From positions 193 through 64,192 of the forward strand of contig JANLTH010000008.1 of NCBI GenBank assembly GCA_031362865.1: a stretch of 64,000 nt of DNA. Reading direction: 5' to 3'. Made by a program: the position numbers and the translations under genes. Positions 1-49,237 of the stretch are shown piece after piece (position 1 is the stretch's first letter; every line of letters starts with the position of its first letter). Source of the stretch: Burkholderiales bacterium. GTDB taxonomy: Bacteria; Pseudomonadota; Gammaproteobacteria; Burkholderiales; JAEUOS01. A model generated the notes under the pieces. The model was given only the letters and a program-made list of their open reading frames with translations, did no database searches and was not told where the DNA came from.

Positions 1-213
1 GTAGCGGCGTTGAAACGAAGCAATCGCCTCAGTCTCAGTCAGTCCGCCGTCATCGATGAAACGGGCGAACTTGTCATAAATCTTCGCGCGAGCCGTGTTG
101 CCGAACAGACGCTTGGCTAACCATCGGTTAAAGCCCGCAACCAGGCCACTCGCTGGCATGGCTGCAAGCTGACTTTTCGCGCGGGATGCGCTTGACCCCA
201 GATTGGTGCCCAT
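1..213 (-). CDS. pilR: N-terminal fragment of a PilR-like (GspF/PilC-type) inner-membrane platform protein; runs off the window edge.
   Basis: ATG at 213 gives MGTNLGSSASRAKSQLAAMPASGLVAGFNRWLAKRLFGNTARAKIYDKFARFIDDGGLTETEAIASFQRRY. It lies directly downstream of the PilQ-like ATPase, as in R64/PAPI-1 pil operons. The assignment is positional plus a weak motif. Confidence 0.4.
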   Translation of the reverse strand, partial: MGTNLGSSASRAKSQLAAMPASGLVAGFNRWLAKRLFGNTARAKIYDKFARFIDDGGLTETEAIASFQRRY

Positions 214-291
214 GCTTTTGGTGACATCACCGATTCGCCGCATTGGTTGTAGTGCCATCACGATTCCTCACTCAAAGAAATGTTCAACCCG

Positions 292-1914: not shown

Positions 1915-2001
1915 CGATCCAATTCAATCCAGCCAGCGTGTCGATCTGTGAGGCTTTTGGTGACAACCCAGGCCAACACGCGACGTGTGTGCATCCGTCC
2001 T

Positions 2002-4111: not shown

Positions 4112-4114
4112 GTG

Positions 4115-5902
4115 TTACTCCGCGCCCTCGACCAAGGTAGGCGTGATGAGAATCACAATCGACTCCTTGATGTTTGCAGACCGGACTGAACCACCCAGAG
4201 GCGCAATCGACTCAAGAACCCCTGCACGGTCTGAGCTGGAGCGGTTGCGCTCCAAACCGGTGAGCATCAGGGTTTCCCCGTTGCGCAACGAAGACCGCTG
4301 GGCGAACTGACGCGAGGTCACTTCCGGCGTCTGAATCGACGAGCCGCCACTGGAAACCGTCGTTAAACGCTCCAGTTCGGACATCGACAAGCCGTACTGC
4401 AAAAGAATGCGATCATTGTCCAGGATGTGTGGCAGCAGGTTGAGAGCAAAGCCTGTTGTCACTTGGCCGGGGGTGAGTTGCGTGCTTGTACCAACCTGTG
4501 CCGTCTGATTCGAAGCCACCGATGCCAGATAGCTCGTTTGCGTTGAAAACGAGAACGGCACAGGCTGGTTGTTCAAGGCCGTGGCTGTAATGTTTTGCAG
4601 AGAGGCAACTTGGCCTACCGACGAAAGAGCGTTGACCACCAACTGGGTGTTGTCCCACGGACGGTTTCGGCCTTTGGTGGGTACGACCGTGCCCGAAAGC
4701 GCGCTCGCTGCTGCACCGACCAAGGTCACTGGGCTGCCAAACTTGAGTGCCAGTGCGTTGTTGAGGTTTTGCCAAACCATGTCCCACTTGACCCCGTATT
4801 CACCGCCCAAATTGCTGGTCACGGAAAACACCTGTATCCGCACATGCACCTGACGCGACAGGCGGCGGTTTTCATGTTCGAGGATCTTGGCCACCGCATC
4901 CAGCGCCTCGGGCGTATCCGTGACAGTGATTGAGCCGCTCGCCGGGTTCATTGACAAACGATCCGTCGTCATCGCCGCCCGCAATGCCGTCCGCGTCGAT
5001 TCCCACAAATCCAGGGTATTCGTGTCCAGCGTCGCAGCCGAAAGCCCTTGCGATTGCGTTGCCTGAGTGCCTTGCGTGCCACCGCTGCTGGTCGATTGGT
5101 TTGTCGCGCCGACCTGATTCTTGATGCTGGTCGTACCCGCCAACGCTTTGAGCACGAACGTGCGCGTCTCGTACCGGAACACATGGATCGCATCGGCCTC
5201 GTACTTCCACGAGACCCCCAAGCGCGCTGAGACGTTGTTCATCAACCCGGCAAGTGAACCGGCGTAGTCCAGCACCATGTCACTGCGCGTTGCCACACCT
5301 TGACTGGTCAAGGCCGATTGCACCCCGCCAGTGGGCACGACCGCGACTGGCGGGGGTGGCGGCAGATTCGGTGTACCTGGCGCACCAGGAGCACCTGTTT
5401 GGGTATTGGATTGCACTGGAGCTACCTGACGCGGTGTAGTAGACCCTGTGCCCAGACTGGCGTTAAACACATCCGGGGCCAATTTCACGGGCACACCAGT
5501 CACAAGGGAAATCCGCTCAGCGATCGACGTGATGTCGGCACGATCTGTGAACACCATCGTGACCTGCTTCTGGAAAACGGATGGCAAATTGCGCTGCTTC
5601 TGGATTGGAGTCGGCTTCCAAGCGATGTAGGACGACCCGTCACGCGACACATGCTGCACCGGCTCAATCACCCGAGGCAACGGCTCCGGGTTCTTGTTAC
5701 CCGTGCTGGAGTGGATACGCTCCGTCGTTTGTGTGGTTTTTCCGAAAAAGGCGTTCGCCGCTTCCGTACCATTTGTCGCAGCGCAACCAGTTAGCGCGAT
5801 AGCGAGGGCCATTCCAAGCATGCTGACCGTTGCTCGCTTGACTCGCTTAACTTGATTAAAAATGGGTTTCATCATTTGAATCCTGTGTGAGGGTGAGTTC
5901 AT
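4115..5902 (-). CDS. pilN: PilN-like outer-membrane secretin lipoprotein of a type IVb pilus.
   Basis: Lipobox LTGC after an N-terminal signal, and a C-terminal secretin-like region (NGETLMLTGL...SIVILITPTLV). Confidence 0.8.
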   Translation of the reverse strand: MNSPSHRIQMMKPIFNQVKRVKRATVSMLGMALAIALTGCAATNGTEAANAFFGKTTQTTERIHSSTGNKNPEPLPRVIEPVQHVSRDGSSYIAWKPTPIQKQRNLPSVFQKQVTMVFTDRADITSIAERISLVTGVPVKLAPDVFNASLGTGSTTPRQVAPVQSNTQTGAPGAPGTPNLPPPPPVAVVPTGGVQSALTSQGVATRSDMVLDYAGSLAGLMNNVSARLGVSWKYEADAIHVFRYETRTFVLKALAGTTSIKNQVGATNQSTSSGGTQGTQATQSQGLSAATLDTNTLDLWESTRTALRAAMTTDRLSMNPASGSITVTDTPEALDAVAKILEHENRRLSRQVHVRIQVFSVTSNLGGEYGVKWDMVWQNLNNALALKFGSPVTLVGAAASALSGTVVPTKGRNRPWDNTQLVVNALSSVGQVASLQNITATALNNQPVPFSFSTQTSYLASVASNQTAQVGTSTQLTPGQVTTGFALNLLPHILDNDRILLQYGLSMSELERLTTVSSGGSSIQTPEVTSRQFAQRSSLRNGETLMLTGLERNRSSSDRAGVLESIAPLGGSVRSANIKESIVILITPTLVEGAE

Positions 5903-5927
5903 TCGCTCAAGTGGTGCCGTTTATGAC

Positions 5928-7274
5928 TTACTTGGCCGCGTAAGGGGTGGCAGGGGTCGATCCACTCACCCGCAAAACCTTATTGCCGTCATAAAAGGTG
6001 AAGTGCAGTGGTCGCTCGGCGGTGGCAAGACTCGTGGCAACTTTGTTGATCGCTTCTTCAAAGCTCCCGGAAAACGATGCCCGCAAGTCCAGCGGATAGT
6101 CAATCTGCGCATCCCAAGCCAACTGCCAACCTGCCAGTTCGACCCACCGTGCGAGAGCACGACTGAGAGTTTTATCGGTCTCGGGAACCAGTGCCCATTC
6201 GGGCACTGGGGCTGGTAATGCTGAAGCCAACGTCGAGGTGACAGGGGCCGATACTGCGGCATTTCGCAACTGCGCCAACTGACCCGGCTTCGACGACACC
6301 CTGTGCAAGGTGATTTCACGGTTATCGAAATTCACCACGGCCCGCACATTGGCCGTGGTCATTACGTCCCGCAGCACGTTGATCCACGGACGACCGTTCC
6401 CGTACCAAGACACCTGCTGTTCGACATCTACGCCACCGACTTCAAAGCCCTTAAAATTGGACGGAACGATATGCTCCACGGCTTCCCGTAGGGTCCCGGT
6501 GCCACGTGCCCGAAGACCGGATTGCTTGGGCATCGTGCCAATCGTTTCCACGTCGCCTGCGCGTACCAATGGCATCCGTGAACCCAATGCAACCCGCATG
6601 TCGTTTCGCAAAGTCAAACGCTCTTCGGCAGCATGAGAGGTGGAAGACACAATTGCCAACGGCACTACTGGCACGACAGGAGCGGAAATGGCAGAAGACT
6701 GCTGTGTCGCATGAGGCGGTGCATAGACCGGCGGATGCATTGCCTGTGCCTGGACTACCGGACCCAACACCGAGGCAGCATGTCCGTGCTGCTGCGAAGA
6801 AGTCGGATAGCGATACGAGTTGCCGGACACGCTAGGGTCATTGGCGCGACCTCCAATGTCCAATGGCACAGCCCGTCCGCCATTCATAGCCACTGGTTCC
6901 CGCGCTGGGTATGCCATTGACGCTTGCTCGACAGCGACCGCTCGGTTACTGCTCACATCAATCCGTACCCGGCCTGACACCACGGCGAAACGATCATGCA
7001 CGCCTTGCACGACGACATAAGGGTCTTCCGCGACGGGGTTTGCCAATTGCTCCCCACTTGGCGTGGCAATGAGAATGACTGGTGTCTGGACGCCCCTGGC
7101 AAACTGGAAGTAAGTGCGCTTGCCATCGTGAAACACCTGGGTTGGCGCACCTTCGGCCCGACGATCCGATACCGTATAGACAAAGTGATAGCCTTTCACT
7201 TGAGCAGCGGCGACAGGTGACAATGCTGGGGCCAGCAGACTGGCAAGTACCGCAAGAATTCTGATTTGTTTCAT
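5928..7274 (-). CDS. pilL: PilL-like conjugative-transfer-region protein (TcpQ/PilL-type C-terminal domains), secreted.
   Basis: Signal peptide MKQIRILAVLASLLAPALSPVAAAQ. Two C-terminal segments resemble the PilL/TcpQ type. It heads the pilL-N-O-P-Q-R order. Confidence 0.55.
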   Translation of the reverse strand: MKQIRILAVLASLLAPALSPVAAAQVKGYHFVYTVSDRRAEGAPTQVFHDGKRTYFQFARGVQTPVILIATPSGEQLANPVAEDPYVVVQGVHDRFAVVSGRVRIDVSSNRAVAVEQASMAYPAREPVAMNGGRAVPLDIGGRANDPSVSGNSYRYPTSSQQHGHAASVLGPVVQAQAMHPPVYAPPHATQQSSAISAPVVPVVPLAIVSSTSHAAEERLTLRNDMRVALGSRMPLVRAGDVETIGTMPKQSGLRARGTGTLREAVEHIVPSNFKGFEVGGVDVEQQVSWYGNGRPWINVLRDVMTTANVRAVVNFDNREITLHRVSSKPGQLAQLRNAAVSAPVTSTLASALPAPVPEWALVPETDKTLSRALARWVELAGWQLAWDAQIDYPLDLRASFSGSFEEAINKVATSLATAERPLHFTFYDGNKVLRVSGSTPATPYAAK

Positions 7275-7360
7275 TGATGCCTCATGTCAAGTTGAATGCT
7301 CATTGTCAGAGCCGAAGACCCGCCCGCACGATTCGAAAGCTTGCAGGTAGGAAGGGGTTT

Positions 7361-7963
7361 TCATGTCTTCGGCAGGGAACGGAAGTGCGCGGGATCATTG
7401 ACCACCACGCGATGCAGAATCGCAAAAATCCGGTTGTAGACATGCCGAATGCCAAGCGTGAAGCGCTCGATCTCACGCCAGTCACCGTCGTGGAGATAAG
7501 GGCACGCGAAAAACCAATCCAGTAGCACCCTGTCGGAACTGCGCTCAACTATCGCCGGTGCAGACGTGCCGACTTCGCCCAACCACAATGACTGGTATTC
7601 CGCCGTGGGATCGAGCATCAGTGCTTGGCTCAAACGTCGGGACATCATCACCCCGACGCGAATCGTTTTGCCAAACTGGTAAACGGAAAAGTCGATCCCT
7701 TCGAAGATCGGTTCCATGTCGTCGGCATCCAGATCGCATCGCTGACTTTGCAGTTCAAACGGCGCACGGAATAGCAGTGTGCCGTTTCGTGGATTGGACT
7801 TGAACTGATCCTGGGAAAGCAGTGGTGTGACCTTCTCGTGCTCCACATTTCGATCCACATCATCAGGCAGCAGGCGAACTGCTGTGATGATGGCATCAAA
7901 GAATTGCTTCCGTTTGTCCAGTACGTAGGACTCGGGCAGTATGCTGATACCAGTGCAAGTCAC
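7361..7963 (-). CDS. Hypothetical soluble protein coupled to the upstream transglycosylase gene.
   Basis: GTG at 7963 overlaps the TGA of the upstream gene (GTGA). No TM segment and no motif I recognise. The longer track ORF (to 8086) would overlap the upstream CDS. Confidence 0.4.
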   Translation of the reverse strand: MTCTGISILPESYVLDKRKQFFDAIITAVRLLPDDVDRNVEHEKVTPLLSQDQFKSNPRNGTLLFRAPFELQSQRCDLDADDMEPIFEGIDFSVYQFGKTIRVGVMMSRRLSQALMLDPTAEYQSLWLGEVGTSAPAIVERSSDRVLLDWFFACPYLHDGDWREIERFTLGIRHVYNRIFAILHRVVVNDPAHFRSLPKT

Positions 7964-8862
7964 GATTTGCGCTCTCCGTGCGTAGTTTTTAAAGACCGTT
8001 GAAAATGGTTGTTGAATGAGTTGAGGTAGCGTTGGCTGCGGACTGCATCGGCCGGGGAGTGGTAGTGACGAATCGCCATCGACCAAGTGCCTGTGCTGCG
8101 ATAGTTCTCATTGAGGATGTCAGCAGCGACGCGCGTGTTGATCGCTGGTTGGAAGGCATCCCACAGCGATTCAAAGCGATGCCCGTGATATTTCCAATTC
8201 ACCTGCATCAGTCCAATGTCGAAACTGCGCTGCCCTTTGGCCAGTAACCAGCGCGCAGCAGCAAAGGCATCCTGGCGGGTCTTGAAGTAGAAGCCCTGAC
8301 CGTTCCAGTTGATTGTCCAAGGCCACGGAGCGCCGTTTCTTGCTGACTCATTCATCGCGATCCCGTACAGCACCCGAGAATTCACGCCACTACGCGTAGC
8401 GGCCCGCTCAAACGGAGCGAAAGGTGACGCGCAAGCCCACCGGCCGCGACGCTCCGCCCGCGCTTCGTCTGCATCGGCAAATGCGGTGGCGGCATCGGTC
8501 TCGATCATTCCTGCACGGGCCAGCTCTGACCGGTAATCCACATGCTTGCCTGCGACCTTCACCAGTGGAATGTCGCCGTACATCCAGACACCCTCAGTTA
8601 GCGCAATCGTTGGCAAAGGTAGATCCGGCGACTTGCCACATGCCGAAAGTGCCGTGACACCCGCCAATGGCAATACTCCCTTTGATCCATCTTGACGCTG
8701 GACGATCGGCGCAGTGGGGTCGGACAGGGAAAGCAGCACGTACTGGCTTGCCGGATTGACCTCCTGTGCGGTCACGAGCGCAGAAAACGTCAGTGGCAAC
8801 GTTGCCAAAACGAGTGATGCGGCACGTTCCCGCCATCTCTCCATACGCTTAGCGATCTTCAT
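7960..8862 (-). CDS. Secreted lytic transglycosylase (C-terminal SLT domain) with an extra N-terminal domain.
   Basis: SLT motifs AMNES...GLMQVN...Y and a signal peptide ending LVTAQE. The start is ambiguous between the ATG at 8862 and the ATG at 8844. Confidence 0.8.
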   Translation of the reverse strand: MKIAKRMERWRERAASLVLATLPLTFSALVTAQEVNPASQYVLLSLSDPTAPIVQRQDGSKGVLPLAGVTALSACGKSPDLPLPTIALTEGVWMYGDIPLVKVAGKHVDYRSELARAGMIETDAATAFADADEARAERRGRWACASPFAPFERAATRSGVNSRVLYGIAMNESARNGAPWPWTINWNGQGFYFKTRQDAFAAARWLLAKGQRSFDIGLMQVNWKYHGHRFESLWDAFQPAINTRVAADILNENYRSTGTWSMAIRHYHSPADAVRSQRYLNSFNNHFQRSLKTTHGERKS

Positions 8863-10093
8863 CAAACACCATGTCCCGGTTGACCTGGATGGCGATCAAC
8901 GTGCCTTGCGGAACCGTGATCGTGGGCTGAATCACTTTGTTGCGATCCAGAATCCGCTTGCTCGTTTCAGCCAATACTTGACCTGCCGCCGTGCCTGGCG
9001 TAGTCGATCCCGTGTTGACCACCGTCGTTCCTGTTGCTGCCTTGGGTTCGACGACCATCGAAATTGCCGCAATCAGCAATGAGGTGCCGAACTGCTTCAG
9101 GAAGTGGTTGTTCACGTCACCGCTGATCCCTGACTTTCCATGTGCGTCAGCAGCGGGCGAGCCTTGCAGGCGAACACTGCGGCCATCGGGCATGATGAGC
9201 CGCTGAAACGCCATGAGCACACGCTCCTGACCGGGTTGAATCTCGGCGTTGTAACGTCCTACAAGGCGTGATCCGCGTGGGATGAGAAGCTTGTCACCTT
9301 TGATCGAGTCATAAACGTCATTGCTCACACGTGCAGTGACTTGTCCTGGCAAATCGGTATTCAGGCCGTTTACCAGCACCGCTGTAATGATCGAGCCTTC
9401 ATGGAGAACAGCTTTGCCCACTGCCGGATTCACTCGGAGGGACTGGTTCTCACCGTCCGCGCCAAGCCCATCAGCGCCGCTGCCACGCAACCATGACAGA
9501 TTGGACTGGTTAGCATTTTCCGGCGTACGTCCCTGGGTTTGGGCGGCACGAATCAGGGCAGCAATGTCACCATCACCTGATGACTGGCTCCGGCCCTGCA
9601 TGCCAAGCGGTGATGCGGCTTGCGAAATCCCGCGCAGAAGTGCTTGTGCTGTGTCCGTAGTTTGAGACGGTGCCGTTGACGAAGTATTTCCAGTCAATCC
9701 CATCAGAGGGCTTGCCAAGGCTTGCGCACGTGCAATGGCCGCTTCGTCGCCCTTCCCGCCAATCGACTTGGGCGGATTTCTGTCGGCGTAGTCTTTGAGT
9801 TCGCGCGGAATCGGCGTTTCAACCGGCGCAGGCTTGGACTCCGGCTTTTTTTGCGCATCCAGCAATGCCTTGACATCGGCGGCGCTGGGGGCATTTTGCA
9901 AGTTGACCTGCTTGTCTTTATTCGCGGCCTTGGCCTCGGTCTCCTCGGATTGATATGCCTTGAACATGACCCCGAAAAACACCAGGATGCCCACGACGAC
10001 GATGATGATGACATGCAAGTTCTTTTTGACCTTGCCGCGAGGAACTCTCTCGCTTGCCTCATCAACAATATCTGACCCGGCAGCGCGACTCAC
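8849..10093 (-). CDS. trbI: Conjugal transfer protein TrbI (VirB10 family).
   Basis: N-terminal TM, Pro-rich linker, and a C-terminal block LIPRGSRLVGRY...RVLMAFQRLIMPDGRSV...GISGDVNNHF typical of TrbI/VirB10. The GTG start overlaps the trbG stop. Confidence 0.9.
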   Translation of the reverse strand: MSRAAGSDIVDEASERVPRGKVKKNLHVIIIVVVGILVFFGVMFKAYQSEETEAKAANKDKQVNLQNAPSAADVKALLDAQKKPESKPAPVETPIPRELKDYADRNPPKSIGGKGDEAAIARAQALASPLMGLTGNTSSTAPSQTTDTAQALLRGISQAASPLGMQGRSQSSGDGDIAALIRAAQTQGRTPENANQSNLSWLRGSGADGLGADGENQSLRVNPAVGKAVLHEGSIITAVLVNGLNTDLPGQVTARVSNDVYDSIKGDKLLIPRGSRLVGRYNAEIQPGQERVLMAFQRLIMPDGRSVRLQGSPAADAHGKSGISGDVNNHFLKQFGTSLLIAAISMVVEPKAATGTTVVNTGSTTPGTAAGQVLAETSKRILDRNKVIQPTITVPQGTLIAIQVNRDMVFDEDR

Positions 10094-10950
10094 TGATCTG
10101 CCCCTTTGCCGGTTTTGCCGAACAAATTGCTCCAGAAACCACCACTTTGATTCCGTGCCTTGGGCAACACCTTGACCTCTTTGTCTCCAATCTTGAGCAG
10201 TATGCCGTTGGGTGCGAGGCGTTGCAGAACCAGGTAGTTGCCGCGCACCACATAGTTGCCGAGAAGCGCTTCACCGTCTTTCTCAGGGAGAAGAAACAGC
10301 GCTGGCATTTCGGACACTTCGGCCATGCGTAACATCGTGAAGCGCCCGTCATCAAACACCTGAAGTGGACGGAAATGGGCGTCGCCTTGCACGTCGTAGT
10401 CCCAATTCATTTTTGAGACGGCTTCGACCGGGGACACGACCGCCGCCTCACGAACCTTGATGTCCGCAGAAGTGATTTCTTCGCGCTTGCGTTCCTCGAC
10501 CTCCTGTGCCAGAAGCACATCCGGGTAGTGCCACGACACGCGCTGGAACCACTTATCCGAGTGCTTGACCGCATGTAGTACTAACTGGTAGCTACGCTTG
10601 CTGGTGACAATCGTTGCACTGGTTGTCACGCCTTCGCGCACCGGCTTGATGAACAAATGTTTCGTTCCAGGGATTTGCTCCCGGACCCACGAGATTGTGT
10701 CGCCCATGATGAGTCCCTTGAAGGTTTCATCACTGCCAATCTCAATGTTGGTGGCCATGCCCGGTGCAGCGTAGACCGGGAAGGTGTTGTTCACATCGTA
10801 GGCATACACCACCAGACGCGGGTCTCCCGGCATGCTGATGGCCTGCGCCTGGGCGTGCGCGTGGTTCACCGGTGCTGACATAACGCCACTGAAAGCAAGA
10901 GCTGCTACCACGAACGGGCGGGCGAGTTTCGACGTTAGGATCAATTTCAC
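10090..10950 (-). CDS. trbG: Conjugal transfer protein TrbG (VirB9 family).
   Basis: Signal peptide and VirB9/CagX-like repeats (VYAYDVNNTFPVYAAPGMATNIEI). GTGA overlap with trbF. Confidence 0.85.
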   Translation of the reverse strand: MKLILTSKLARPFVVAALAFSGVMSAPVNHAHAQAQAISMPGDPRLVVYAYDVNNTFPVYAAPGMATNIEIGSDETFKGLIMGDTISWVREQIPGTKHLFIKPVREGVTTSATIVTSKRSYQLVLHAVKHSDKWFQRVSWHYPDVLLAQEVEERKREEITSADIKVREAAVVSPVEAVSKMNWDYDVQGDAHFRPLQVFDDGRFTMLRMAEVSEMPALFLLPEKDGEALLGNYVVRGNYLVLQRLAPNGILLKIGDKEVKVLPKARNQSGGFWSNLFGKTGKGADQ

Positions 10951-11642
10951 TTGTCCAAGTCCTTATCAATTTGAAAATGGGTAATGAACAGGCCGATTGG
11001 GTTGGCCTGGATTTGCTCGATGTCTTTTGGAGGATCGAAAGCGAAGTGCAAGGTGACGACCTTCTTCTCGACCTTTTCTTCCTGCTCGCGATTGCTGCGT
11101 GTTTTGAGGGCCACGCGGATGACGGCAACCGAATCGGAAACGAATGAGACGCTTAAGACGGATGCCTGCTGGTTGAACGTCCCGTCTTCCGACAACTTGC
11201 CCAAGGGCTTGGTTGTCTTGATGAAATCCAGAAACTCGACCTGTGCCTTGCCGCGAGTGACCGAATGGGCTTCTTTGAGGTAAGTGAGAGAAAGGCCCAC
11301 ATCGACCGTCAGCAACTTTTGAACCCAAGTCGTCAGGAAATAGCGCTTCACCTTGTCGTCGGCCTCCCACTTCTGCACCTTGACCGGATCACCACTGACT
11401 TTTCCAGACGATTCGACTTGGATCACATAGGGGATGCTTTCCTTTAATGGCAGCATGACAATGACCGCCACGGTCATCGACACGGCCCACAGCCCGACGA
11501 TGGTGAACCCTACAAACCACCGGTTGCGTTCGATGTGTGCAGAGCCGTAGCTCTCGAAAAAAGCGCGCCGGGCCGCAGCAAACCTTGCCTCCATCGCAAC
11601 GGGCGGCGCAGAATCTGGGATGGTGGACTTGGAATCTGACAT
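10947..11642 (-). CDS. trbF: Conjugal transfer protein TrbF (VirB8 family).
   Basis: Internal ATG at 11642 gives 231 aa with the single N-terminal TM (RNRWFVGFTIVGLWAVSMTVAVIVML) and periplasmic domain layout of VirB8/TrbF. The longer upstream extension looks non-coding. Confidence 0.8.
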   Translation of the reverse strand: MSDSKSTIPDSAPPVAMEARFAAARRAFFESYGSAHIERNRWFVGFTIVGLWAVSMTVAVIVMLPLKESIPYVIQVESSGKVSGDPVKVQKWEADDKVKRYFLTTWVQKLLTVDVGLSLTYLKEAHSVTRGKAQVEFLDFIKTTKPLGKLSEDGTFNQQASVLSVSFVSDSVAVIRVALKTRSNREQEEKVEKKVVTLHFAFDPPKDIEQIQANPIGLFITHFQIDKDLDK

Positions 11643-11734
11643 GAGCGCAAAATGGTGAGCAATGGACTCATTAAAGCAACGGGGGCTTTCGACAAGAAAT
11701 CGAAAGCCCCCATGAGAAAGGCTGCTTTTTGCAG

Positions 11735-12043
11735 CTAGATCAATGTCATCAACGCTCGTGCCGCATGCCAGGCCGAATGGACGAGTACACCGGCAGAAGC
11801 AAGCAGACCGACCAACACAAAAACCGGTCGCTTCTGTAGCAATACACCCAAGTGCCACGGCCATCGCAAACGACGCTCTTGAACAACGGCATCCACACTT
11901 CGGTCAAACTGGTCACGTTCCACCTGGTTGATCGCAAGTCGATTTTCGAGAAGATTGCCAAGCAACTGAGAATCCTCAGACGATCTGCCGGCTAACACCA
12001 GCAACCGGCAGACCAGCGCACCTTTGCCCGCGAGGAAGCTCAC
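11735..12043 (-). CDS. Small ORF (102 aa, C-terminal TM) occupying the slot where trbK/trbL normally lie.
   Basis: The GTG start overlaps the trbJ TGA (GTGA), which suggests translational coupling. No similarity to TrbL that I can see. Confidence 0.3.
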   Translation of the reverse strand: MSFLAGKGALVCRLLVLAGRSSEDSQLLGNLLENRLAINQVERDQFDRSVDAVVQERRLRWPWHLGVLLQKRPVFVLVGLLASAGVLVHSAWHAARALMTLI

Positions 12044-12840
12044 TTCTTCTCCCCAACGGGTTTGAGCGTCGGGAGGGCTTTGTCCAATAACGATCGCTGT
12101 GCCTTGCCAACGGCCTCGGTGTTCCCTGCCGTTTTCTCTTGCTCGGCGAGCCGGACGGTGCGCTCCTGGGCGATGATGATGTTTTGACTTGCGATGGATT
12201 GGGTCAAACTCGCCAGTTGCGATCCCATCATGTTCAGTTGCGTGTTCGTGAGTTGCTGCTGGGCCTGGTTCCCCAACGCAGCAGGAACCTTCTTGGCCAA
12301 TGACTGAAACGCCTGCACATCGCGCATGGTTTGTTCCATGATCGTCGCATCGCGCTCGAAGACAATGGCATTCCCCTCTTGCAAGGTCTTTGCACGGGAA
12401 ATTTGCGACTGCGCCCAGCCTTCAAGCGACATGTTCGCGCTTGCAGCTTCTTGGTAGCGCCCCTGAATCATGCCGCTGACATCTTTGAGCGAACCGAACA
12501 ACTGTTCCGCCGCCTGTTTCGCCGCCAGAACGTCGCGCAGTTCGTGCAGCGCTCCGCCTAGCGCGTCGTCAAGAACCGACTGTGGAAGGTTCTTGAGATT
12601 CTGAAACATGGTTTGCAATTGCTGCACCTGAGTGACGTACTGCTGAATCTGAGTGGCAGTCTGGCGCACAGATTCGGTTGCGGTGATGGCGTTTTTTGCC
12701 AAATGGGCGATTTGCGTCCACTCCTTGGCGCAATCAGGGCAACCGCCTCCACCCCCGCCACCGCCTCCTCCCGCGTACACAGGAAAGTGAATGGAAAGCG
12801 CGAAGATTGCTACGGTAAGGCGAGTTTTGAGTCGATGCAT
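12040..12840 (-). CDS. trbJ: Conjugal transfer protein TrbJ (VirB5-like).
   Basis: ATG at 12840 preceded by GGAGGA, a signal peptide ending VYA, and a Q-rich coiled coil (QIQQYVTQVQQLQTMFQNLKNL). Confidence 0.75.
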   Translation of the reverse strand: MHRLKTRLTVAIFALSIHFPVYAGGGGGGGGGGCPDCAKEWTQIAHLAKNAITATESVRQTATQIQQYVTQVQQLQTMFQNLKNLPQSVLDDALGGALHELRDVLAAKQAAEQLFGSLKDVSGMIQGRYQEAASANMSLEGWAQSQISRAKTLQEGNAIVFERDATIMEQTMRDVQAFQSLAKKVPAALGNQAQQQLTNTQLNMMGSQLASLTQSIASQNIIIAQERTVRLAEQEKTAGNTEAVGKAQRSLLDKALPTLKPVGEKK

Positions 12841-12948
12841 GGCATCCTCCATAAGATGCCAAGATCATGGACTTGTTCGCCGGAAAGTCACTTATGAAAG
12901 CGCCGATTTTGTCGGCTATATTTGCAGTTTGACCTCTGTTCAAAATCA

Positions 12949-13149
12949 ATGAACTTCATTCAATGCTCACGTTGCGGACATTTCAATGTCCCAAAGGTAA
13001 AGAATTGCGAAAGCTGTAACCCGCGAATCCCGAAGAATTATTTGCTGCGACTAGTGGTATTCCTACTCGCGGCATCAGTCGCCGCTTACTTTATTTGGGC
13101 TATCGACAAGGCTGGTGGCCTTCCAAAATATCTTTACCAGTTCCTTTAG
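12949..13149 (+). CDS. Small zinc-ribbon (CxxC...CxxC) membrane-anchored protein, 66 aa.
   Basis: MNFIQCSRCGHFNVPKVKNCESCNP followed by the TM LLRLVVFLLAASVAAYFIWAI. No clear SD. Its 3' end overlaps the convergent 181-aa ORF. Confidence 0.35.
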   Translation: MNFIQCSRCGHFNVPKVKNCESCNPRIPKNYLLRLVVFLLAASVAAYFIWAIDKAGGLPKYLYQFL

Positions 13150-13620
13150 GTCTGATTTCGCCCTTTTTGGTGTTGGTATCCATCGGAACCCAAACGCTGT
13201 TTCACGCGCTTGATAAGGCAGTTCGTGGCAACGCAATCGGAATGATGGTTGTGGAGACCCGTTAAACCAAGTTTCAATCCACCACTCGTAAACCAAGTTC
13301 GGATCCATTTGATCGACGGCATCGTGCCAGATAAATTGCTGCACTTTCTCGGCAAACTCCCAAGGCGCTGTAAAGGTCAGTTGTGGCGAGTCCGTCGCAG
13401 AATCAAACAAGGTTCCGACCCGTAAGATGCGCACATCCGGGATGCTCGAAATAGCATTCGCGAACTCGTGAACGGCTTTGTCCGTGCGTGACATCAAAAA
13501 AATCATCCAAACCGGCTTGAACGCCCACCAGAACGCCCACCACACCGATCCGGCAATTAACCAATAAATGAGCAACTCAAGAAGAAAGAAGAAAAAACTG
13601 GGGTTTGCGGATGGTTCCAA
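13075..13620 (-). CDS. Hypothetical membrane protein (Trp/Phe-rich N-terminal TM region plus a soluble domain) inserted between trbE and trbJ.
   Basis: TTG start 7 nt after GGAGG, immediately after the trbE stop. The sequence is more AT-rich by eye than the flanking trb genes. Confidence 0.5.
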   Translation of the reverse strand: MEPSANPSFFFFLLELLIYWLIAGSVWWAFWWAFKPVWMIFLMSRTDKAVHEFANAISSIPDVRILRVGTLFDSATDSPQLTFTAPWEFAEKVQQFIWHDAVDQMDPNLVYEWWIETWFNGSPQPSFRLRCHELPYQARETAFGFRWIPTPKRAKSDLKELVKIFWKATSLVDSPNKVSGD

Positions 13621-13623
13621 GGT

Positions 13624-16134
13624 TTAACCTCCAGAAGGTGCTTCGACAGCCTGCCCCGAGACCTCTTCAATGTAATCCCGTTGCCAGTTTGGCGCTTGCC
13701 CGGCATAGTGCCGCTCAAAAACCTTGAGCGCACGCTGATCGGAGCGCAAACAGGCCAATGTCACCGGATCAAAGTCCGCCAGCACCATCCGCGATATCCC
13801 CGGCTTGACGATGTAGTAGTGACTTTTTGGTTGTGCCCACCGGATGCGATTGATCTGCGCATCATTCAGGCCGAACATGGAGCGATACATCTCGGCGAAC
13901 GCATGTGCCTTGTCGTTCGGCAAAAAAATGCGCGTAGGGATGTTGTCGGAGATCGAGGCAAAGATTTGCGATTTAGCAAAGTCATCGAGACTCTGCGTGG
14001 TCAGGATTACGATGCCATTCAACTTGCGCATGGTCTTCAGCCAGTCCTCGACTTTCAGTGAGAACCGTTCATCCTTGAGCAGAAACCACGCCTCTTCAAC
14101 ATAGATGATCGTCGGTTGACCGTTCGCCGCTTTCAGTTTTTTCTCAATGCGGTAGAAGGCGTAATCCATGAACGCACGCGACAGTCGCTCATCGTTGTAG
14201 ATCCCACTCATCTCGAAGCAGGCGAATACTCCGAGGTTGAAACTGTCGGTTTCGTTGTCGAAGAATCGGGCGTGCTGACCGTCGTTTACCCATGCCTTGA
14301 GTTCGTCCTGGAGAACATCGGGCAAGTAGTTATAGAGGCTACGCAAGCGCCAATGGACTGGCCCCAGCTCGAAACAATGCTTGATCGCTTGGGTAATCGC
14401 ATCATCATCAGTGCCCTTGAGCTTGTACTCACGCGATGTAATGAGGTTTTCTATCCATTTCTGCACCCAACTGTGTGCTGTCGGATCGCCAAGCAAGCTC
14501 ATCGGATTGAGAGTCACCGGCTCGGTCTCGGATGCAATGTCGATGCAGTCACCTCCTTGCAGCAAGGTGGAAATCCGGCAAGACGAATTTTTGTCGAAGA
14601 TGTAGGTGTTGATCGGGCCATACTTACGGGCCATCGACAGCAGAAAATTCATCAAAACAGACTTGCCCGCGCCGGAGGGTCCGACAACAAACGAGTGCCC
14701 CAAAGCACCAACATGGAAGTTGAAATAGTACGGTGTTGCCATCTCTGTATCAAATACGGCCAGCGCATCACATCGCTTGCCCAGTTGCTCGGTATAGTGC
14801 TCGTTGATCCGCTCACCGGTCGTGATGGTGCGCAAGGGCGCAAGATCGGCGAGATTGGCGGAACTGACCATATGGGTACGAACCAGCTCAGCCCACCCGC
14901 CCGGAAGCGTTGAAGACCATGCCGACAGCAAATGCAGAGTTTCACGAACTGAAATGAACTGTGATTGACGCACCTGCGCCATTACGTTCTTTAGCGTCTC
15001 TTCACTCTCCTTCAGGGTGCTGCCATAGGCGACAACCGTGATGTTGAAGTAGCCAAATTGCCGATTCTGCGCCGTGATTTCACTGAGCGCCTGACCAGCT
15101 GACTCCACTAACATCGCACGTCCAGGATCAACCATCTGCGATGCCTCGCCGGAAAACAACTCCATCAACCGCGCACGAAGTGGCTTGCTCAGGTTCAAGT
15201 GGAATTTTTGCCTTTGGGTTACATGTGCAATCGCTTGCTCGCGCGAGGCTACCTTGAAGGCAATCGACAGAGTGATTTCGCCGGGCACAGCCAACAACGT
15301 ATCCATCAGGCCGGGTGTGGTCAAATCCGGCCAGCTTTTAATCGAGCATGCCGTAGCAAACTTCGATTCCTCACCGTCAAACCGCAAAAAGTTTGGCCCT
15401 ACTGTGATCGTGTTGTCGGCAAGGTACGAATCCAGATACACAGGTATCGATGGGACGGCAACATCTTGAGATGCACTCGCAGGGCTGATCAGATCATGCA
15501 GCATCCCCAGCATTTCTGACTCAGGCAATCGTCGCAATCCGGCATCCGGGAGCGTGCCTTGCACCGCTTCAGAAGTCTCTGCAAATGCAAGCACCTGCTG
15601 ATTCATTTCGCTTTCAGACCACTGGAACGCACGGGCATTGCTAAAGGAAGACATCAATGTCTCCTTAAACGCTGCCAGTGCGGGCATTCCGGCTTCAGCG
15701 GTGAAATAGTGGAACTTGTCGAAAAATCGTTCCGCACCCTTAGACGGAGCCTGGGTCACAGAAAAATAGTGCCGGTTCTCGAAGTTCCACCCGGCTTGAA
15801 ACCGGTTGCGCCGTTGGGTATCGATCAAGCCAGATACAAAGTCTGGCATGTCCGCATGAGGATACGACGTGGTTCGGCGACGGACAACCGTCCACCAAAT
15901 AGTGTGCCTTTGATCGAGATTTCGCAAGGCATGCTCGGCGACATGCGCGAGTCGGTCGATGTGCGATTGTTCAATGCCGTCTGAGTCGGTGCCCTTGAAC
16001 TCATACACGGCCATCAACGACCCATCCTTGTTGAGCAACGCAGACGGGCCAACGACGGCCAACCAGGGCGCTATTTCGGCGATGGTGCGCGCCTTGCTCT
16101 CATATTTTTTGATGAAGCTGCTCAACCTCAGCAC
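13624..16134 (-). CDS. trbE: Conjugal transfer ATPase TrbE (VirB4 family).
   Basis: 836 aa, Walker A GPSGAGKS, Walker B-like IIYVEEAW, and VirB4 architecture. Confidence 0.92.
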   Translation of the reverse strand: MLRLSSFIKKYESKARTIAEIAPWLAVVGPSALLNKDGSLMAVYEFKGTDSDGIEQSHIDRLAHVAEHALRNLDQRHTIWWTVVRRRTTSYPHADMPDFVSGLIDTQRRNRFQAGWNFENRHYFSVTQAPSKGAERFFDKFHYFTAEAGMPALAAFKETLMSSFSNARAFQWSESEMNQQVLAFAETSEAVQGTLPDAGLRRLPESEMLGMLHDLISPASASQDVAVPSIPVYLDSYLADNTITVGPNFLRFDGEESKFATACSIKSWPDLTTPGLMDTLLAVPGEITLSIAFKVASREQAIAHVTQRQKFHLNLSKPLRARLMELFSGEASQMVDPGRAMLVESAGQALSEITAQNRQFGYFNITVVAYGSTLKESEETLKNVMAQVRQSQFISVRETLHLLSAWSSTLPGGWAELVRTHMVSSANLADLAPLRTITTGERINEHYTEQLGKRCDALAVFDTEMATPYYFNFHVGALGHSFVVGPSGAGKSVLMNFLLSMARKYGPINTYIFDKNSSCRISTLLQGGDCIDIASETEPVTLNPMSLLGDPTAHSWVQKWIENLITSREYKLKGTDDDAITQAIKHCFELGPVHWRLRSLYNYLPDVLQDELKAWVNDGQHARFFDNETDSFNLGVFACFEMSGIYNDERLSRAFMDYAFYRIEKKLKAANGQPTIIYVEEAWFLLKDERFSLKVEDWLKTMRKLNGIVILTTQSLDDFAKSQIFASISDNIPTRIFLPNDKAHAFAEMYRSMFGLNDAQINRIRWAQPKSHYYIVKPGISRMVLADFDPVTLACLRSDQRALKVFERHYAGQAPNWQRDYIEEVSGQAVEAPSGG

Positions 16135-16454
16135 AGCAACCCTCTGCCGTAGCCAACGGGGCGATGGTTGTAGCGTTGCACCGCATGTGGCCAGGGATCA
16201 AGAATATCCGCCTGACGTTGATAACGGATGTAGGCCGTTCGTGTGATCGCATCCTTGCGTGAAAGAGTCCTCAGCAACAAGTGCGTGAAAAAAGCCAGGA
16301 AGATCAAATACCACAACCCCATATGAACACAGACGCTCACGAACAGCACCAAATTGAGGATGAACAGTCGCCACTCCACGCCCATGATGAGCAGGGGCTG
16401 AATCAAGGCTTGGTGGACCACATTGATCCGTCGCTCGTAAGTATCAGCAGCCAA
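16128..16454 (-). CDS. trbD: Conjugal transfer protein TrbD (VirB3 family).
   Basis: About 100-aa membrane protein overlapping trbC and trbE, with the motif ALIQPLLIMGVEWRLFILN. Confidence 0.8.
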   Translation of the reverse strand: MAADTYERRINVVHQALIQPLLIMGVEWRLFILNLVLFVSVCVHMGLWYLIFLAFFTHLLLRTLSRKDAITRTAYIRYQRQADILDPWPHAVQRYNHRPVGYGRGLLC

Positions 16455-16836
16455 GCGCAGATACCCCGAAAATGAATTTCACAAGTGCGGGCGCTGACAC
16501 CGCCAGAGTGCCACCCAGGACAAGTCCCGCCGCACGTGACGCCGACGAACCGGCTTCCCCGAGAGCGAAAAGCAAGCCCGCTACAACTGTCGCCGCGACC
16601 AGCAATCCGATGGCAATTGGTCCAGTGAGCAGCTTAATGGTTCGGCACCATGGCCCAGACCATTCAGCGGGCACGTCCTGTGCCAAAACTTCCGGTGCGA
16701 ACAGCATCAGTGCGACCATAATGAAGATTGACAGCACCGCCTTGTAGAGCAAGACCTCAGTTGCATGAACTGTTGCGAGGTTCAAGACACCAGTGGATTG
16801 GCTGGGAAATCGTAGTTGGATCATGTGAAACACCAT
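16444..16836 (-). CDS. trbC: TrbC/VirB2-type pilin precursor.
   Basis: Small protein with a long leader and two hydrophobic helices, located between trbB and trbD. Confidence 0.75.
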   Translation of the reverse strand: MVFHMIQLRFPSQSTGVLNLATVHATEVLLYKAVLSIFIMVALMLFAPEVLAQDVPAEWSGPWCRTIKLLTGPIAIGLLVAATVVAGLLFALGEAGSSASRAAGLVLGGTLAVSAPALVKFIFGVSALGC

Positions 16837-16849
16837 GTGGTTGAAAGAA

Positions 16850-17893
16850 TTAGTAAGCGCCGTCCTTACGAAAGACAGTCGTCATTTCGTAGGAGCCGTC
16901 GTTGGAAAGTCCGGTAAGCAGCGCGATTTGCTCGGGAAAACGCATGCCCTTCCACTCACTCATTTGCACAATGGTGTGAAAGGTCTGCGCGATCTGAGAA
17001 CGAATGGCAGGCAAAGGGAGATCGACCCCGGCCTGCAAGACGAGGTTTTCGAGCTTGGTTAAGGCAAGGAGCGTGTTGTCTGCGTGCAAAGTACAAAAGC
17101 CACCGGCATGTCCGGTGTTAAGCGCCTGGATCAAGTCGTAAGCTGCGCCGTCACGCACTTCCCCAACAATGATCCGATCAGGGTTGTAACGAAGCGCATG
17201 ACGCACCAGCTTGCGAATCGTGATGTCGCTTTGGGCATTTGCCTCAAAACTGACGTGATTCGGTACAAGCACCCTCAGCTCTGCCGTGTCCTCAATGGTC
17301 AGTACGCGCTCGGTCGAATCGATTTGCGCGAGCAACGCTTTCAAAAACGTCGTTTTGCCGGACGATGTGCCACCGCTCACAATGCAGTTGCGCTTGGTTT
17401 TCACCAGCCAACGCAAAAAGCCCGTCAGGTGTGCTCCACCCTGACGCACCAACGCCAGGTCAGGCATGGCCATCGAGTTGCGTTGGCCTTGTAGCGCCGG
17501 ATCGACACGGAATGAGTCAGCCGCCTCATAATCCGCAAGACTGATGTCACGATCCGAGTGGCGGCGTATCGACAGACTGTCGCCATGCACCGAAAATGGT
17601 GCGAGAAGACCGGCAACGCGAAAGCCCTCGATGCGACTATTCAGTAGAGCGGAATCGTTCTTGAGACTGCTGTCAATGTTTGCAATTCGCGAGAGCAGCT
17701 TGATTGCCGCCTGGACGGAAGTCTGCGGAAGTTTCGCGTCCGCTTGGAAAACTTGACCCGCTCGCTCAATCCAAATCTGGTCGAAGCGGTTGACCATCAA
17801 CTCATTGACGGTCGAATCGCGCATGTACTCGCGGAGCACGCCTAAGGTGTCCATGAGTTGTTTTGTCGCCTGCTCTCGTGCTTGCCGATCCAT
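16850..17893 (-). CDS. trbB: Conjugal transfer ATPase TrbB (VirB11 family).
   Basis: Walker A GGTSSGKTT and VirB11/GspE-type boxes (RIIVGEVRDGAA, GHAGGFCTLHA). Confidence 0.9.
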   Translation of the reverse strand: MDRQAREQATKQLMDTLGVLREYMRDSTVNELMVNRFDQIWIERAGQVFQADAKLPQTSVQAAIKLLSRIANIDSSLKNDSALLNSRIEGFRVAGLLAPFSVHGDSLSIRRHSDRDISLADYEAADSFRVDPALQGQRNSMAMPDLALVRQGGAHLTGFLRWLVKTKRNCIVSGGTSSGKTTFLKALLAQIDSTERVLTIEDTAELRVLVPNHVSFEANAQSDITIRKLVRHALRYNPDRIIVGEVRDGAAYDLIQALNTGHAGGFCTLHADNTLLALTKLENLVLQAGVDLPLPAIRSQIAQTFHTIVQMSEWKGMRFPEQIALLTGLSNDGSYEMTTVFRKDGAY

Positions 17894-18065: not shown

Positions 18066-18680
18066 CTATACCGCTTTCACGATCACACGAACAAGTAGTG
18101 GCATGGTGATTAGAAGCGACACCCACGCCATACCTGTCAGCGCACCCGGGATCAGGAAAAGCAAGATGCTTGATCCGGCGAGGAAGATTACCCCGTGCGA
18201 CGCATTGAACATGCTCGCCCCACTCCTGACCTGAAAGCCTTGTGCGGCCAATCGCTTCGCACACCATCCGTCGATCCCCGCAGCGATCACCAGTGCCAGC
18301 AGAGCAATGAACCAAGTACCGAACGTCACGGCCCGATAGCACACGCGCAACATGCCGAACCACACGTTCGCAACATAGTTGCGCACAAAACCATCCGCCG
18401 TTTGCTCCGATTCGATCCCGTGAATCGGTTCACGGTACAGCGAGGTTGACCATAGAACGAGATCGCCAATCTCGTTTTCTCGGAAGATACTGACAAACAG
18501 CTTCTCGGCACGCACCTCCAACGCTTGATGCTTTGATTCGCCATGGACGCTAACGTTGTAGCTACGCTCGGCAGGCGGCACACCTCGATCATTGCTGTAG
18601 CTGGGCACTGCCGACCAACTGAAGAGGACCACAATCAGGATCGCCAGCCAAATCAAAATATGCGTACCGACACGCCCCAC
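18066..18680 (-). CDS. ICE-associated polytopic membrane protein (resembles the PFL_4697-type family found next to traD in PFGI-1/ICEclc-class elements).
   Basis: 204 aa with about four TM helices, positioned downstream of traD. The family assignment is from memory and position only. Confidence 0.45.
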   Translation of the reverse strand: MGRVGTHILIWLAILIVVLFSWSAVPSYSNDRGVPPAERSYNVSVHGESKHQALEVRAEKLFVSIFRENEIGDLVLWSTSLYREPIHGIESEQTADGFVRNYVANVWFGMLRVCYRAVTFGTWFIALLALVIAAGIDGWCAKRLAAQGFQVRSGASMFNASHGVIFLAGSSILLFLIPGALTGMAWVSLLITMPLLVRVIVKAV

Positions 18681-18695
18681 AATACTGTCCCGGTT

Positions 18696-19349
18696 CTACG
18701 TAGCAACGGCGAGTGTGGCATTGCCACGACGTTCGACAAATTCGCTGGAAGGACTCAAGGGAGCGCCTCTTCCTTTGACGAACAGGACGTTGAAATCCGT
18801 CGTATCCAGGATGCGCTGCGCAAGGCCATACCGCATCGTGTCTGGTTCGATGACGGCTTTGTCAGGGTACGGCTCGTCCAGCGGCTCGATTCTTCCTGCT
18901 TCGTGCTCACGAATGAACTCAGTTGCCGTGATCTTTAACGGAATCCAGCAAGTCGTCTTGTCGCGATGTACGGCACCCAACCGCTTGTCCAGCAAGCGCG
19001 GTGCAAATTCAATCAGCCCGGCGAGGAAGGCGTAATACTGATCGCCACTTCGCTCCTTGACGGCCTTTTCGTGGGCGGCGATACCACTGCGCAAACATTC
19101 ATGCAACAAAGGCTCGTCGGTGCCCGGAAATTGCGGCGAGACGACTTCAACCAGCAGTTCACACACAACCTCCAAAGGGGGATAGTTGTTGAAGATTGCT
19201 CTTCCCTTCGGATGCAGACCGATGGCTTTGAGGGCCACTGCCAACTCTACCTTCGCCTTTTTCTTCAGATTCACTTCAACACTCACTTTCTTCACCAAAC
19301 ACGCAATGTCTTGCCTCACACCAGAGCAGGTTTTTTTTCTCGCACTCAT
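18696..19349 (-). CDS. Hypothetical soluble protein coupled to traD.
   Basis: ATGA overlap with the traD stop. No motif I recognise. Confidence 0.5.
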   Translation of the reverse strand: MSARKKTCSGVRQDIACLVKKVSVEVNLKKKAKVELAVALKAIGLHPKGRAIFNNYPPLEVVCELLVEVVSPQFPGTDEPLLHECLRSGIAAHEKAVKERSGDQYYAFLAGLIEFAPRLLDKRLGAVHRDKTTCWIPLKITATEFIREHEAGRIEPLDEPYPDKAVIEPDTMRYGLAQRILDTTDFNVLFVKGRGAPLSPSSEFVERRGNATLAVAT

Positions 19350-21235
19350 CCATCGAGCATCAACGGCAAGCGACCTTTGATGATTCGGCCGCCCGTGAGC
19401 ATCGCGAAATACTGCAAGTTCGGTAGTCTCAGCATCAATTCAGGCCGTACCAATCTGGACTCTTTGTAGCCCAAGGACGAACCCGCATTGGTGCCGAACT
19501 CCATCGCGCTTTTTTCGGATGACTGTGACGAACCCGCCGAGTAGGAGACCGAGCGAACCTGTACGTCGCCAATACATTCCGAGAGCCACTCTGCCGTTTT
19601 CGGGTCACGAACACGCAGACAGATCATGTTGTTCTGGTTACCGAACACCTGACGTGCTTTTGCCTGGCTTTCCAGTGCCGCTTCGAAGTCAGAATCCACC
19701 TGGGTTGCGAAGAAAATCTTGAATCCTGCACCGCGCCCCTTATTGAGAAGCTGGATGAACTGATCGTTCACCACTTCGGACGCCTCATCGACGAACAGAT
19801 ACACGTCCGCCTTGGTGCCCATGTTGTAGATCGCGCCCGCGACGGCAGCAAGATCGGCCAGAGCCATCGAACCGACCGCACCGGCAATCGTTTTGTTGGA
19901 AAGGGCATCAAGCCCCATGTAGAGCACGCGCTTTCCCGTGATGACCCGCCAAAGATCGGTGATACCGCGCTGATCGTTCAAGTCAGTTTCGTTGGGTGAC
20001 AGCATTTCACCGACTTCGCCGGACGTGAGCGTCAACAGCAAGGGCGTCAATGCCAGGATCATCTTGGAAAAATGTTCTTTGTTATGCGTGTGGACGCTAA
20101 TCAAATCGGCAATCGTTTGACTTCCTGCCTGCTTTTTCTGCTTGCACCAGTCTTGGTAGAACATCGAGGCTTGAGCCGCTCGATCAGCAGGGCCTTTACC
20201 GCCTGGCGCTTGCTGATAGGCACCCAAGTCCTTGTCCCAATCGGGGCCGACGTGCTCACGTAAAAAAATATCCAAGCAACGCTCCAGCAGTGGCCCGACA
20301 CCATTACGTACCCAACCATAAATGCGACGCAAGTCCGGCTTGTCACCGACCATGAGCATGCCATTGACAATCTGACTCATCGTCATCTCGCCAAATGCTC
20401 CAAAACTGTCGTTTGCACCCAGCACGTTCGCGATCCGGGCGCCGATGTCCAAGGGATTTGCCCAGTTCGCGATTGGGTTGATGCGAACTGACTTCGAGGG
20501 ATAGGCTGGCGAGAAATACAGAAATGGCACGCCATTGCGCTCACACTCCTTCTTGACGCGCGCACGCCAGGCATCATCGTTTTTTGGATCGATGATGATG
20601 ACCGACCCCAAATCAGCAGTCGATTGCACCATTGCCTGAATGGCCTGCATGGTGAGCCATTCGTAGAGGCGGGTTTTGCCGGAACCGGTTGTCCCGGCAA
20701 TAAATGTGTGCCCCTCCATTGCGCCCATCGGGAAAACGAGGTCCTTCTCTTCCTCAAGCCCATGAATCCACGACACTCCGGTACGTCTGTCCGCGAGCAG
20801 TGGAATCGTGCTTTCTGGCTGACAGAAACGGAGCATCCGGTCATTGGCACTACCCATCCAAGCTGGAAAGATGGTCAAGTCCTTTTCAGGGACATTGAGC
20901 AGTTCAAACGCGCGCTGGGCGTGCTCGGGAGTCCAGTCGAATCCTTGTCCGATGTAGAAGCCCATCTTCTCCAACGCGGCTTTACCAATGATGTCCGCCC
21001 TTTCGCCAGTACATGTTTCGAGGAATTGGTTTGACAGGCGAACCTTGATCGAGATTTGGGTAGCTGCCTGATAGCCGCGCCATCCAGCGATACCCAAACA
21101 ACCGAGTCCGACTCCAACGGCCAACGAAGCATGCGGAATGGTCAACGCCGCCAACGCTGCCACAGCCCATCCACCTGCTGCGACATGTTCGAGAACAGGC
21201 CGGAAAAATGGGGCATATCGGTCTGGGGTTTGCAT
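19346..21235 (-). CDS. traD: Type IV coupling protein (TraD/VirD4 family, ICE-type TraD).
   Basis: Two N-terminal TM helices, Walker A GTTGSGKT, and Walker B-like YLFVDEASE. Confidence 0.85.
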   Translation of the reverse strand: MQTPDRYAPFFRPVLEHVAAGGWAVAALAALTIPHASLAVGVGLGCLGIAGWRGYQAATQISIKVRLSNQFLETCTGERADIIGKAALEKMGFYIGQGFDWTPEHAQRAFELLNVPEKDLTIFPAWMGSANDRMLRFCQPESTIPLLADRRTGVSWIHGLEEEKDLVFPMGAMEGHTFIAGTTGSGKTRLYEWLTMQAIQAMVQSTADLGSVIIIDPKNDDAWRARVKKECERNGVPFLYFSPAYPSKSVRINPIANWANPLDIGARIANVLGANDSFGAFGEMTMSQIVNGMLMVGDKPDLRRIYGWVRNGVGPLLERCLDIFLREHVGPDWDKDLGAYQQAPGGKGPADRAAQASMFYQDWCKQKKQAGSQTIADLISVHTHNKEHFSKMILALTPLLLTLTSGEVGEMLSPNETDLNDQRGITDLWRVITGKRVLYMGLDALSNKTIAGAVGSMALADLAAVAGAIYNMGTKADVYLFVDEASEVVNDQFIQLLNKGRGAGFKIFFATQVDSDFEAALESQAKARQVFGNQNNMICLRVRDPKTAEWLSECIGDVQVRSVSYSAGSSQSSEKSAMEFGTNAGSSLGYKESRLVRPELMLRLPNLQYFAMLTGGRIIKGRLPLMLDG

Positions 21236-21244
21236 CGCGAACTG

Positions 21245-49137: not shown

Positions 49138-49237
49138 GGGGAGAAACGCCGCGTTATTATGGTTGGATGTCGCCGCTACACCCGCAGGGCGACAGGCCAA
49201 AACGATAGCTCTGCGGGGTTACAGCAGGCTTACTGGC

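Follow-up and report, generated by a model that had tools for sequence, protein, structure and literature searches.

Gene organization of the locus

The window, by which we mean the whole stretch of 64,000 nucleotides that was analysed, comes from a Burkholderiales assembly of 4.64 Mb, a draft metagenome bin of 184 contigs that is 97.6% complete. A trb operon on the reverse strand encodes TrbB/VirB11 (16850-17893; PF00437), the TrbC/VirB2 pilin (16444-16836; PF04956), TrbD/VirB3 (16128-16454; PF05101), the TrbE/VirB4 ATPase of 836 aa (13624-16134; PF03135, CagE_TrbE_VirB, plus a TraG P-loop domain), the orf181 product (13075-13620), a TrbJ/VirB5-like protein (12040-12852), the small tail-anchored orf102 product (11735-12043; GTG start), TrbF/VirB8 (10947-11642; PF04335, E 6.9e-34, and NF010446; the true start is the ATG at 11642), TrbG/VirB9 (10090-10950; PF03524, E 1e-51) and TrbI/VirB10 (8849-10093; PF03743, E 3.5e-60). 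The matches to the VirB2, VirB3, VirB8, VirB9, VirB10 and VirB11 profiles all lie above the Pfam gathering scores. TrbJ matches TIGR02780 (TrbJ_Ti) with an E-value of 3e-13, which is under the curated cut-off, and is 28.6% identical to TrbJ of the related locus G022 (E 4e-18). TrbE is the sole VirB4 in the genome, and no paralog was seen with tblastn.

The gene order and coordinates of the operon had been read in the same way in the original prediction, and the gene calls hold. That reading also described stop/start overlaps throughout. Such an overlap is present between trbJ and orf102, where the stop codon of the former and the GTG start of the latter share the GTGA at 12040-12043, but gaps of 222 bp and 92 bp precede trbJ and trbF, respectively. 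The interval between trbJ and trbF is indeed only about 400 bp long. The N-terminus of mature TrbJ (residues ~27-50) contains ten consecutive glycines and then CPDCAKEW, and the same is found in the sibling lineage described below; TrbJ proteins of the other relatives carry a conserved (V/I)FDPxN(F/Y)xQ motif at the position of CPDCAKEW.

A type IVb pilus module on the same strand (1-8865) encodes, as judged from Pfam matches, an SLT transglycosylase, o241, a CagX/TcpQ fusion, a PilN-type secretin, PilO, o287, the PilQ ATPase and the 5' part of pilR. The fusion (5928-7274, reverse strand) is a single protein with a VirB9/CagX C-terminal-like domain in its N-terminal part and a TcpQ domain in its C-terminal part. 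It links the type IV secretion system (T4SS) and pilus modules, and the same fusion or a corresponding gene pair occurs in relatives. On the other side of the operon, a transfer block (18066-22402, reverse strand; Pfam and NCBIfam) consists of genes for a DUF4400 membrane protein, the 217-aa o217, an intact TraD-type coupling protein and a short, divergent MobH-like protein; this block is also present in relatives. The MobH-like protein (21245-22402, reverse strand) has 385 aa, compared with ~530-720 aa for its counterparts in relatives, and its score of 52 bits is below the cut-off of 200. It is devoid of the whole C-terminal half and of most residues that are invariant in relatives (e.g. EP.WR, G..WP and YG..G..EP..AMR), which themselves show no classic HD motif in the alignment. 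These features hint that self-transfer may be impaired.

The window includes the right-hand arm of an integrative conjugative element (ICE) inserted in tRNA-Ser. The last genes on the right side of the element encode a DUF3102 protein and an FlhC-like regulator, and ordinary chromosomal genes lie beyond them. The right end is attR (25614-25636, forward strand), a 23-nt copy of the tRNA-Ser(TGA) 3' end with 2 mismatches. The repeat is in the correct orientation, falls exactly at the element/chromosome junction and is the single match in the window, and no match was obtained in 100 shuffles. The other arm is found on contig C67 (positions 11978-39169 of that contig), where tRNA-Ser(TGA) is followed by a tyrosine integrase gene (12226-13359) and ~27 kb of lower-GC DNA with genes for a primase, helicases, a DNA methylase-like protein, a T2SSE/PilT-type ATPase and a Ti TraB-like protein. 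Its assignment as an ICE thus rests on two features, the position of the tyrosine integrase gene next to tRNA-Ser and the recurrence of the tRNA 3' end as a direct repeat at the opposite junction; the GC content is lower on the element side of the junction on both contigs. The chromosomal part of the window also encodes a 480-aa protein with ~10 predicted TM helices and no Pfam family (47758-49200, reverse strand).

The ICE is split over these two contigs, with at least 53 kb visible over both arms and an unassembled gap between them; its size is estimated at roughly 60-100 kb. The window contig (C84) begins inside pilR, whose N-terminus lies at the contig end, and no continuation of pilR or further pil genes were found in any contig of the assembly. 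A T2SSE ATPase gene at the end of contig C60, examined in this connection, is a chromosomal PilT/U-like gene. Following the sibling contigs beyond pilR by exact-protein look-up gave no extension.

Absence of TrbL from the operon and the assembly

The central claim of the original prediction was that TrbL/VirB6 is absent from its syntenic position, and this was borne out. No frame in 11643-12043 resembles TrbL, and PF04610 and a family-specific HMM, which recover TrbL at the corresponding position in all relatives whose sequence is long enough, do not find it there in the window. Chance statistics are not applicable to the absence of a gene, and the recovery of TrbL in the relatives serves as the control. 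The search was run over the window and the entire 4.64-Mb assembly with PF04610, TIGR02783, PF07916 (TraG_N) and the family HMM, built from 14 sequences and searched with filters off. Nothing credible was found, while the same profiles detect TrbL in the relatives. This negative result includes the visible ICE, i.e. at least 53 kb of both arms, the middle being unassembled.

Several candidates were rejected. Weak TrbL matches on contigs C61 and C151 were spurious. A 442-aa protein with 6 TM helices encoded on C67, which might have been a hidden VirB6, belongs to the Ti TraB-like CN-hydrolase family (NF010401, E 4.5e-30) and gives an hhalign probability of 0.1% against TrbL. A second T4SS that could lend its VirB6 was not present, as no other VirB4, TrbL or TraG_N was detected in the assembly.

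Relatives of the operon

Scanning with a TrbE alignment provided 21 loci in genomes of species representatives and 28 in JGI metagenomes, which were compared together with one annotated plasmid. All matches in these scans were at most 46% identical, and single-protein scans for close relatives with TrbJ (genome contigs) and PilQ (metagenome contigs) yielded nothing. A polytopic TrbL follows TrbJ in all 27 relatives with enough downstream sequence (TrbE 33-46% identical to that of the window). These TrbL proteins have 5-8 predicted TM helices and are recognized by PF04610 or the family HMM, and distant outgroups (21-23% identity) have a polytopic protein at the same place. In the TrbE tree, the window nests within a well-supported clade of TrbL-bearing loci. 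Since every one of the 27 relatives carries TrbL and the window is nested among them, the absence of trbL is derived.

In L027, the most distant of the relatives, TrbJ is followed by the small gene, a VirB6-like gene (278 aa, 6 TM helices), a 161-aa gene and TrbF, in this order. Its VirB6-like gene matches the TrbL profile with an hhalign probability of 78% (E 1.7e-5), and the stop codon of TrbJ overlaps the start of the small gene as in the window. L027 groups with the window only weakly in the TrbE tree (81/82, long branches).

The order of modules in the family is not fixed, since the trbF-G-I block lies upstream of trbB-E-J-L in L012 and L015 (MAG MFD01299.bin.1.58); trbJ and trbL are adjacent there nonetheless. 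In many relatives, a membrane-anchored double AAA+ ATPase of ~650 aa, which is unusual for a Trb operon, is encoded between the small gene and trbF (e.g. L010:15331-17307, L011:15495-17477, L020:15966-17912 and L070:17337-19271). It is missing from the window and from G022/L009.

The small genes orf102 and orf181

Neither orf102 nor orf181 encodes a member of the TrbL/VirB6 family. Both proteins are without a Pfam or NCBIfam match, have fewer than four hydrophobic helices and give an hhalign probability of 0.1% each against TrbL. As had been predicted for orf102, its product is not TrbL-like and has a single hydrophobic helix at the C-terminus, which is preceded directly by an LLQKRP motif. 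The supposition that orf102 is unrelated to the locus did not survive the comparison with relatives. These contain a small gene flanking trbL, downstream of it as a rule and upstream of the VirB6-like gene in L027, whose product of 82-106 aa has a [QK][DK]RP- or [QN][DN]RP-type motif followed by a C-terminal TM helix. An HMM built from the small proteins of 12 relatives, with orf102 excluded, was run against six-frame ORFs of the genome. It found orf102 as the sole significant ORF (E 1.2e-5, the next best being 0.37), and orf102 aligns with the small proteins of the relatives in a common ending of LLQKRP and helix. Judging by this profile match and the shared ending, orf102 is a homolog of a conserved small tail-anchored protein that neighbours TrbL, a family which is undescribed and has no database entry as a family.

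The possibility that orf102 is an N- or C-terminal fusion remnant of trbL was rejected, as its product has no similarity to the TrbL profile and belongs to a different conserved family, whose own profile gives a probability of 0.1% when compared with that of TrbL. It is not likely to substitute for VirB6 either, because relatives carry both the small protein and TrbL. The sibling copy of orf102 is 45-50% identical with a dN/dS of ~0.3, which indicates unusually fast evolution.

The second small gene, orf181, has no bearing on the question of TrbL; it is a later, lineage-specific and near-orphan insertion. On the sibling contig L029, orf181 is lacking and just ~100 bp separate trbE from trbJ, and only one real homolog (59%) was found among 1.84 billion representative proteins. 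Its AF2 model, of low confidence (pLDDT 62.8), consists of an N-terminal membrane helix region and a small alpha/beta domain. A role of orf181 as the VirB6 substitute was discarded, since it is missing from the sibling that likewise has no TrbL, is nearly an orphan and is not polytopic.

Sibling lineage, age of the loss and selection

A sibling lineage was found on short contigs of ENA metagenomes. L029 contains the C-terminus of TrbE, a spacer of ~100 bp without orf181, TrbJ (88% identical), the GTGA and the N-terminus of orf102, while L007 and L006 contain the C-terminus of orf102, the same hairpin as the window (see below), TrbF (94% identical) and TrbG. As L029 and L007 overlap within orf102, the sibling has no room for trbL, the overlap being of only ~50 nt between short contigs that come from several samples.

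The dS values between the window and the sibling (0.9-1.9) are near or beyond saturation, so that the dN/dS ratios are rough: 0.028 for TrbE and 0.051 for TrbJ (window vs L029), 0.02 for TrbF (window vs L006/L007) and 0.107 for the N-terminal part of TrbG (window vs sibling). The operon has genuinely lost trbL, and this derived, old loss is common to the sibling lineage. Since the loss, the remaining T4SS genes have been under strong purifying selection, which suggests that the machine is still used.

One of the explanations offered with the original prediction, a system crippled by a clean internal deletion, is therefore disfavoured. The sibling has the same junction, dN/dS is 0.02-0.11 at saturated dS, and a machine that had died would not have kept its genes intact over such a distance.

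The spacer between orf102 and trbF

The 92 bp that separate orf102 from trbF contain a hairpin (11681-11711, reverse strand) with perfect 12-bp arms, GGGGGCTTTCGA-N7-TCGAAAGCCCCC, and a predicted RNA folding energy of -42.8 kcal/mol (z -5.8). The arms are identical in the sibling contigs L006 and L007 despite synonymous saturation of the neighbouring coding DNA. A second conserved complementary pair, AAAGCA / TGCTTT, flanks the hairpin. The same hairpin was not found upstream of trbF in the relatives, several of which have unrelated terminator-like hairpins just before trbF. The spacer with its hairpin is likely the site of the deletion. The hairpin may separate the trbB-orf102 unit from the trbF-pil unit as a terminator or insulator, or else it may stabilize RNA or be bound by a protein.

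Discussion

In our best explanation, to which we assign a probability of about 0.6 as a whole, trbL was lost by an old and clean deletion, the machine was maintained, and the role of VirB6 is probably met from the gap in the element. The ancestor would have had the order trbJ-small gene-trbL-(accessory)-trbF, as seen in L027. By the simplest route, trbL would have been lost in one deletion downstream of the small gene and upstream of trbF, which left trbJ coupled to orf102, followed by the 92-bp spacer with the conserved hairpin; orf181 would have been inserted later. Two separate precise deletions might also have occurred, the sister relation of L027 being weak.

The most likely source of the VirB6 function would be the unassembled middle, which would carry a relocated trbL or encode a protein too divergent to be recognized. 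This component of the explanation is a tentative one, which we would put a little short of even odds. The visible part of the element, at least 53 kb, has shown no replacement gene, and trbL adjoins trbJ in every relative, so that its relocation would be unprecedented in the family.

A machine without any VirB6 is less likely than one with a VirB6 encoded in the gap. Its inner-membrane or stalk part would have been re-engineered, e.g. by TrbJ docking on other subunits, with the type IVb pilus aiding mating contacts. The age of the loss, the strong purifying selection on the other parts and the failure of the profile searches in both the genome and the element are in keeping with this explanation. 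So are the fast evolution of orf102 and the replacement of the VFDPxN motif of the relatives' TrbJ by CPDCAKEW in the window lineage. However, VirB6 homologs are conserved in all T4SSs according to a recent review, and the R388 structure shows VirB6 as the base of the stalk under VirB5, on the route proposed for the DNA and as a proposed recruiter of pilins (PMC12857230). Moreover, the gap in the element leaves room for the missing gene. We regard a working T4SS without VirB6 as rather unlikely, at roughly one chance in four.

It is still less probable that the element is defective for self-transfer and that its T4SS is kept as a surface structure, for adhesion, or for use with TrbL supplied in trans by a helper. 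Besides the missing TrbL and the insertion of orf181 into the operon, the truncated MobH-like protein with most of its invariant residues absent fits such a defect. On the other hand, the genome contains no second T4SS or VirB4 that could act as the helper, the coupling protein, the pilin, the ATPases and the pil genes are intact, and the dN/dS of 0.02-0.05 over VirB4, VirB5 and VirB8 at saturated dS points to a working complex. Finally, a trbL collapsed or skipped in the assembly of the metagenome bin is highly improbable even for a draft of 184 contigs, since independent ENA assemblies of other samples have the same junctions with many substitutions and the junction preserves the reading frames and the GTGA coupling.

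VirB6 is generally regarded as a universal and essential T4SS subunit. The locus can be considered a natural experiment in which the VirB6 gene was deleted from its usual place and the rest of the machine was kept under strong selection. Either a relocated or unrecognisable VirB6 sits in the gap, or the requirement for VirB6 is not absolute. The latter would mean that a T4SS lineage has long been running with VirB2, VirB3, VirB4, VirB5, VirB8, VirB9, VirB10 and VirB11 and no VirB6 homolog, a conclusion that we consider unlikely; if it were true, the VirB5/VirB6 stalk base, which is held to be universal, would be dispensable or could be rebuilt from other parts.

The Trb systems of IncP and Ti plasmids (P-type, MPF_T) and of Tn4371-type ICEs have the order trbB-C-D-E-J-(K)-L-F-G-(H)-I, with which the window agrees for trbB, C, D, E, J, F, G and I. 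It differs from them in having no trbL, in its MOBH-like relaxase-like protein and TraD-like coupling protein and in the attached type IVb pilus. The place of the small membrane protein beside trbJ/trbL is occupied by TrbK or Eex in IncP and IncN/W. The small protein of the window is tail-anchored and not a lipoprotein, unlike its IncP/Ti/Tn4371-type counterpart.

The split rvh T4SS of Rickettsiales resembles the window in that its main operon is conserved and yet has no VirB6. Rickettsiales are known to encode copies of VirB6 at a second locus, whereas none was found for the window, and the norm of the family is an in-operon trbL. The L027 cluster (QLUN01000003.1, from a MAG labelled Chloroflexota) shares with the window the exact overlap of the small tail-anchored gene with TrbJ, but its small gene and trbF are still separated by a short VirB6-like gene and the 161-aa gene.

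The closest known systems are the MobH-TraD-DUF4400-VirB/Trb-PilN clusters on plasmids and ICEs of Rhodocyclales and Burkholderiales. Plasmid unnamed1 of Azonexus hydrophilus NCP973 (NZ_CP151407.1), whose TrbE is 42.5% identical to that of the window, has the same order: FlhC-like regulator, MobH, TraD, hypothetical protein, DUF4400, VirB11, VirB2, VirB3, VirB4, TrbJ, VirB8, VirB9, VirB10, TcpQ, PilN and PilO. Between TrbJ and VirB8, relatives of the Azonexus type encode a 440-aa TrbL/VirB6, a 99-aa small protein, a 115-aa ORF and the double AAA+ ATPase, whereas the window has the small protein alone at this place and the extra orf181 before trbJ. These elements, in which a MOBH-type Trb system is combined with a type IVb pilus, form a widespread and uncharacterised family in Betaproteobacteria, for which a conserved small tail-anchored protein flanking TrbL has now been defined.
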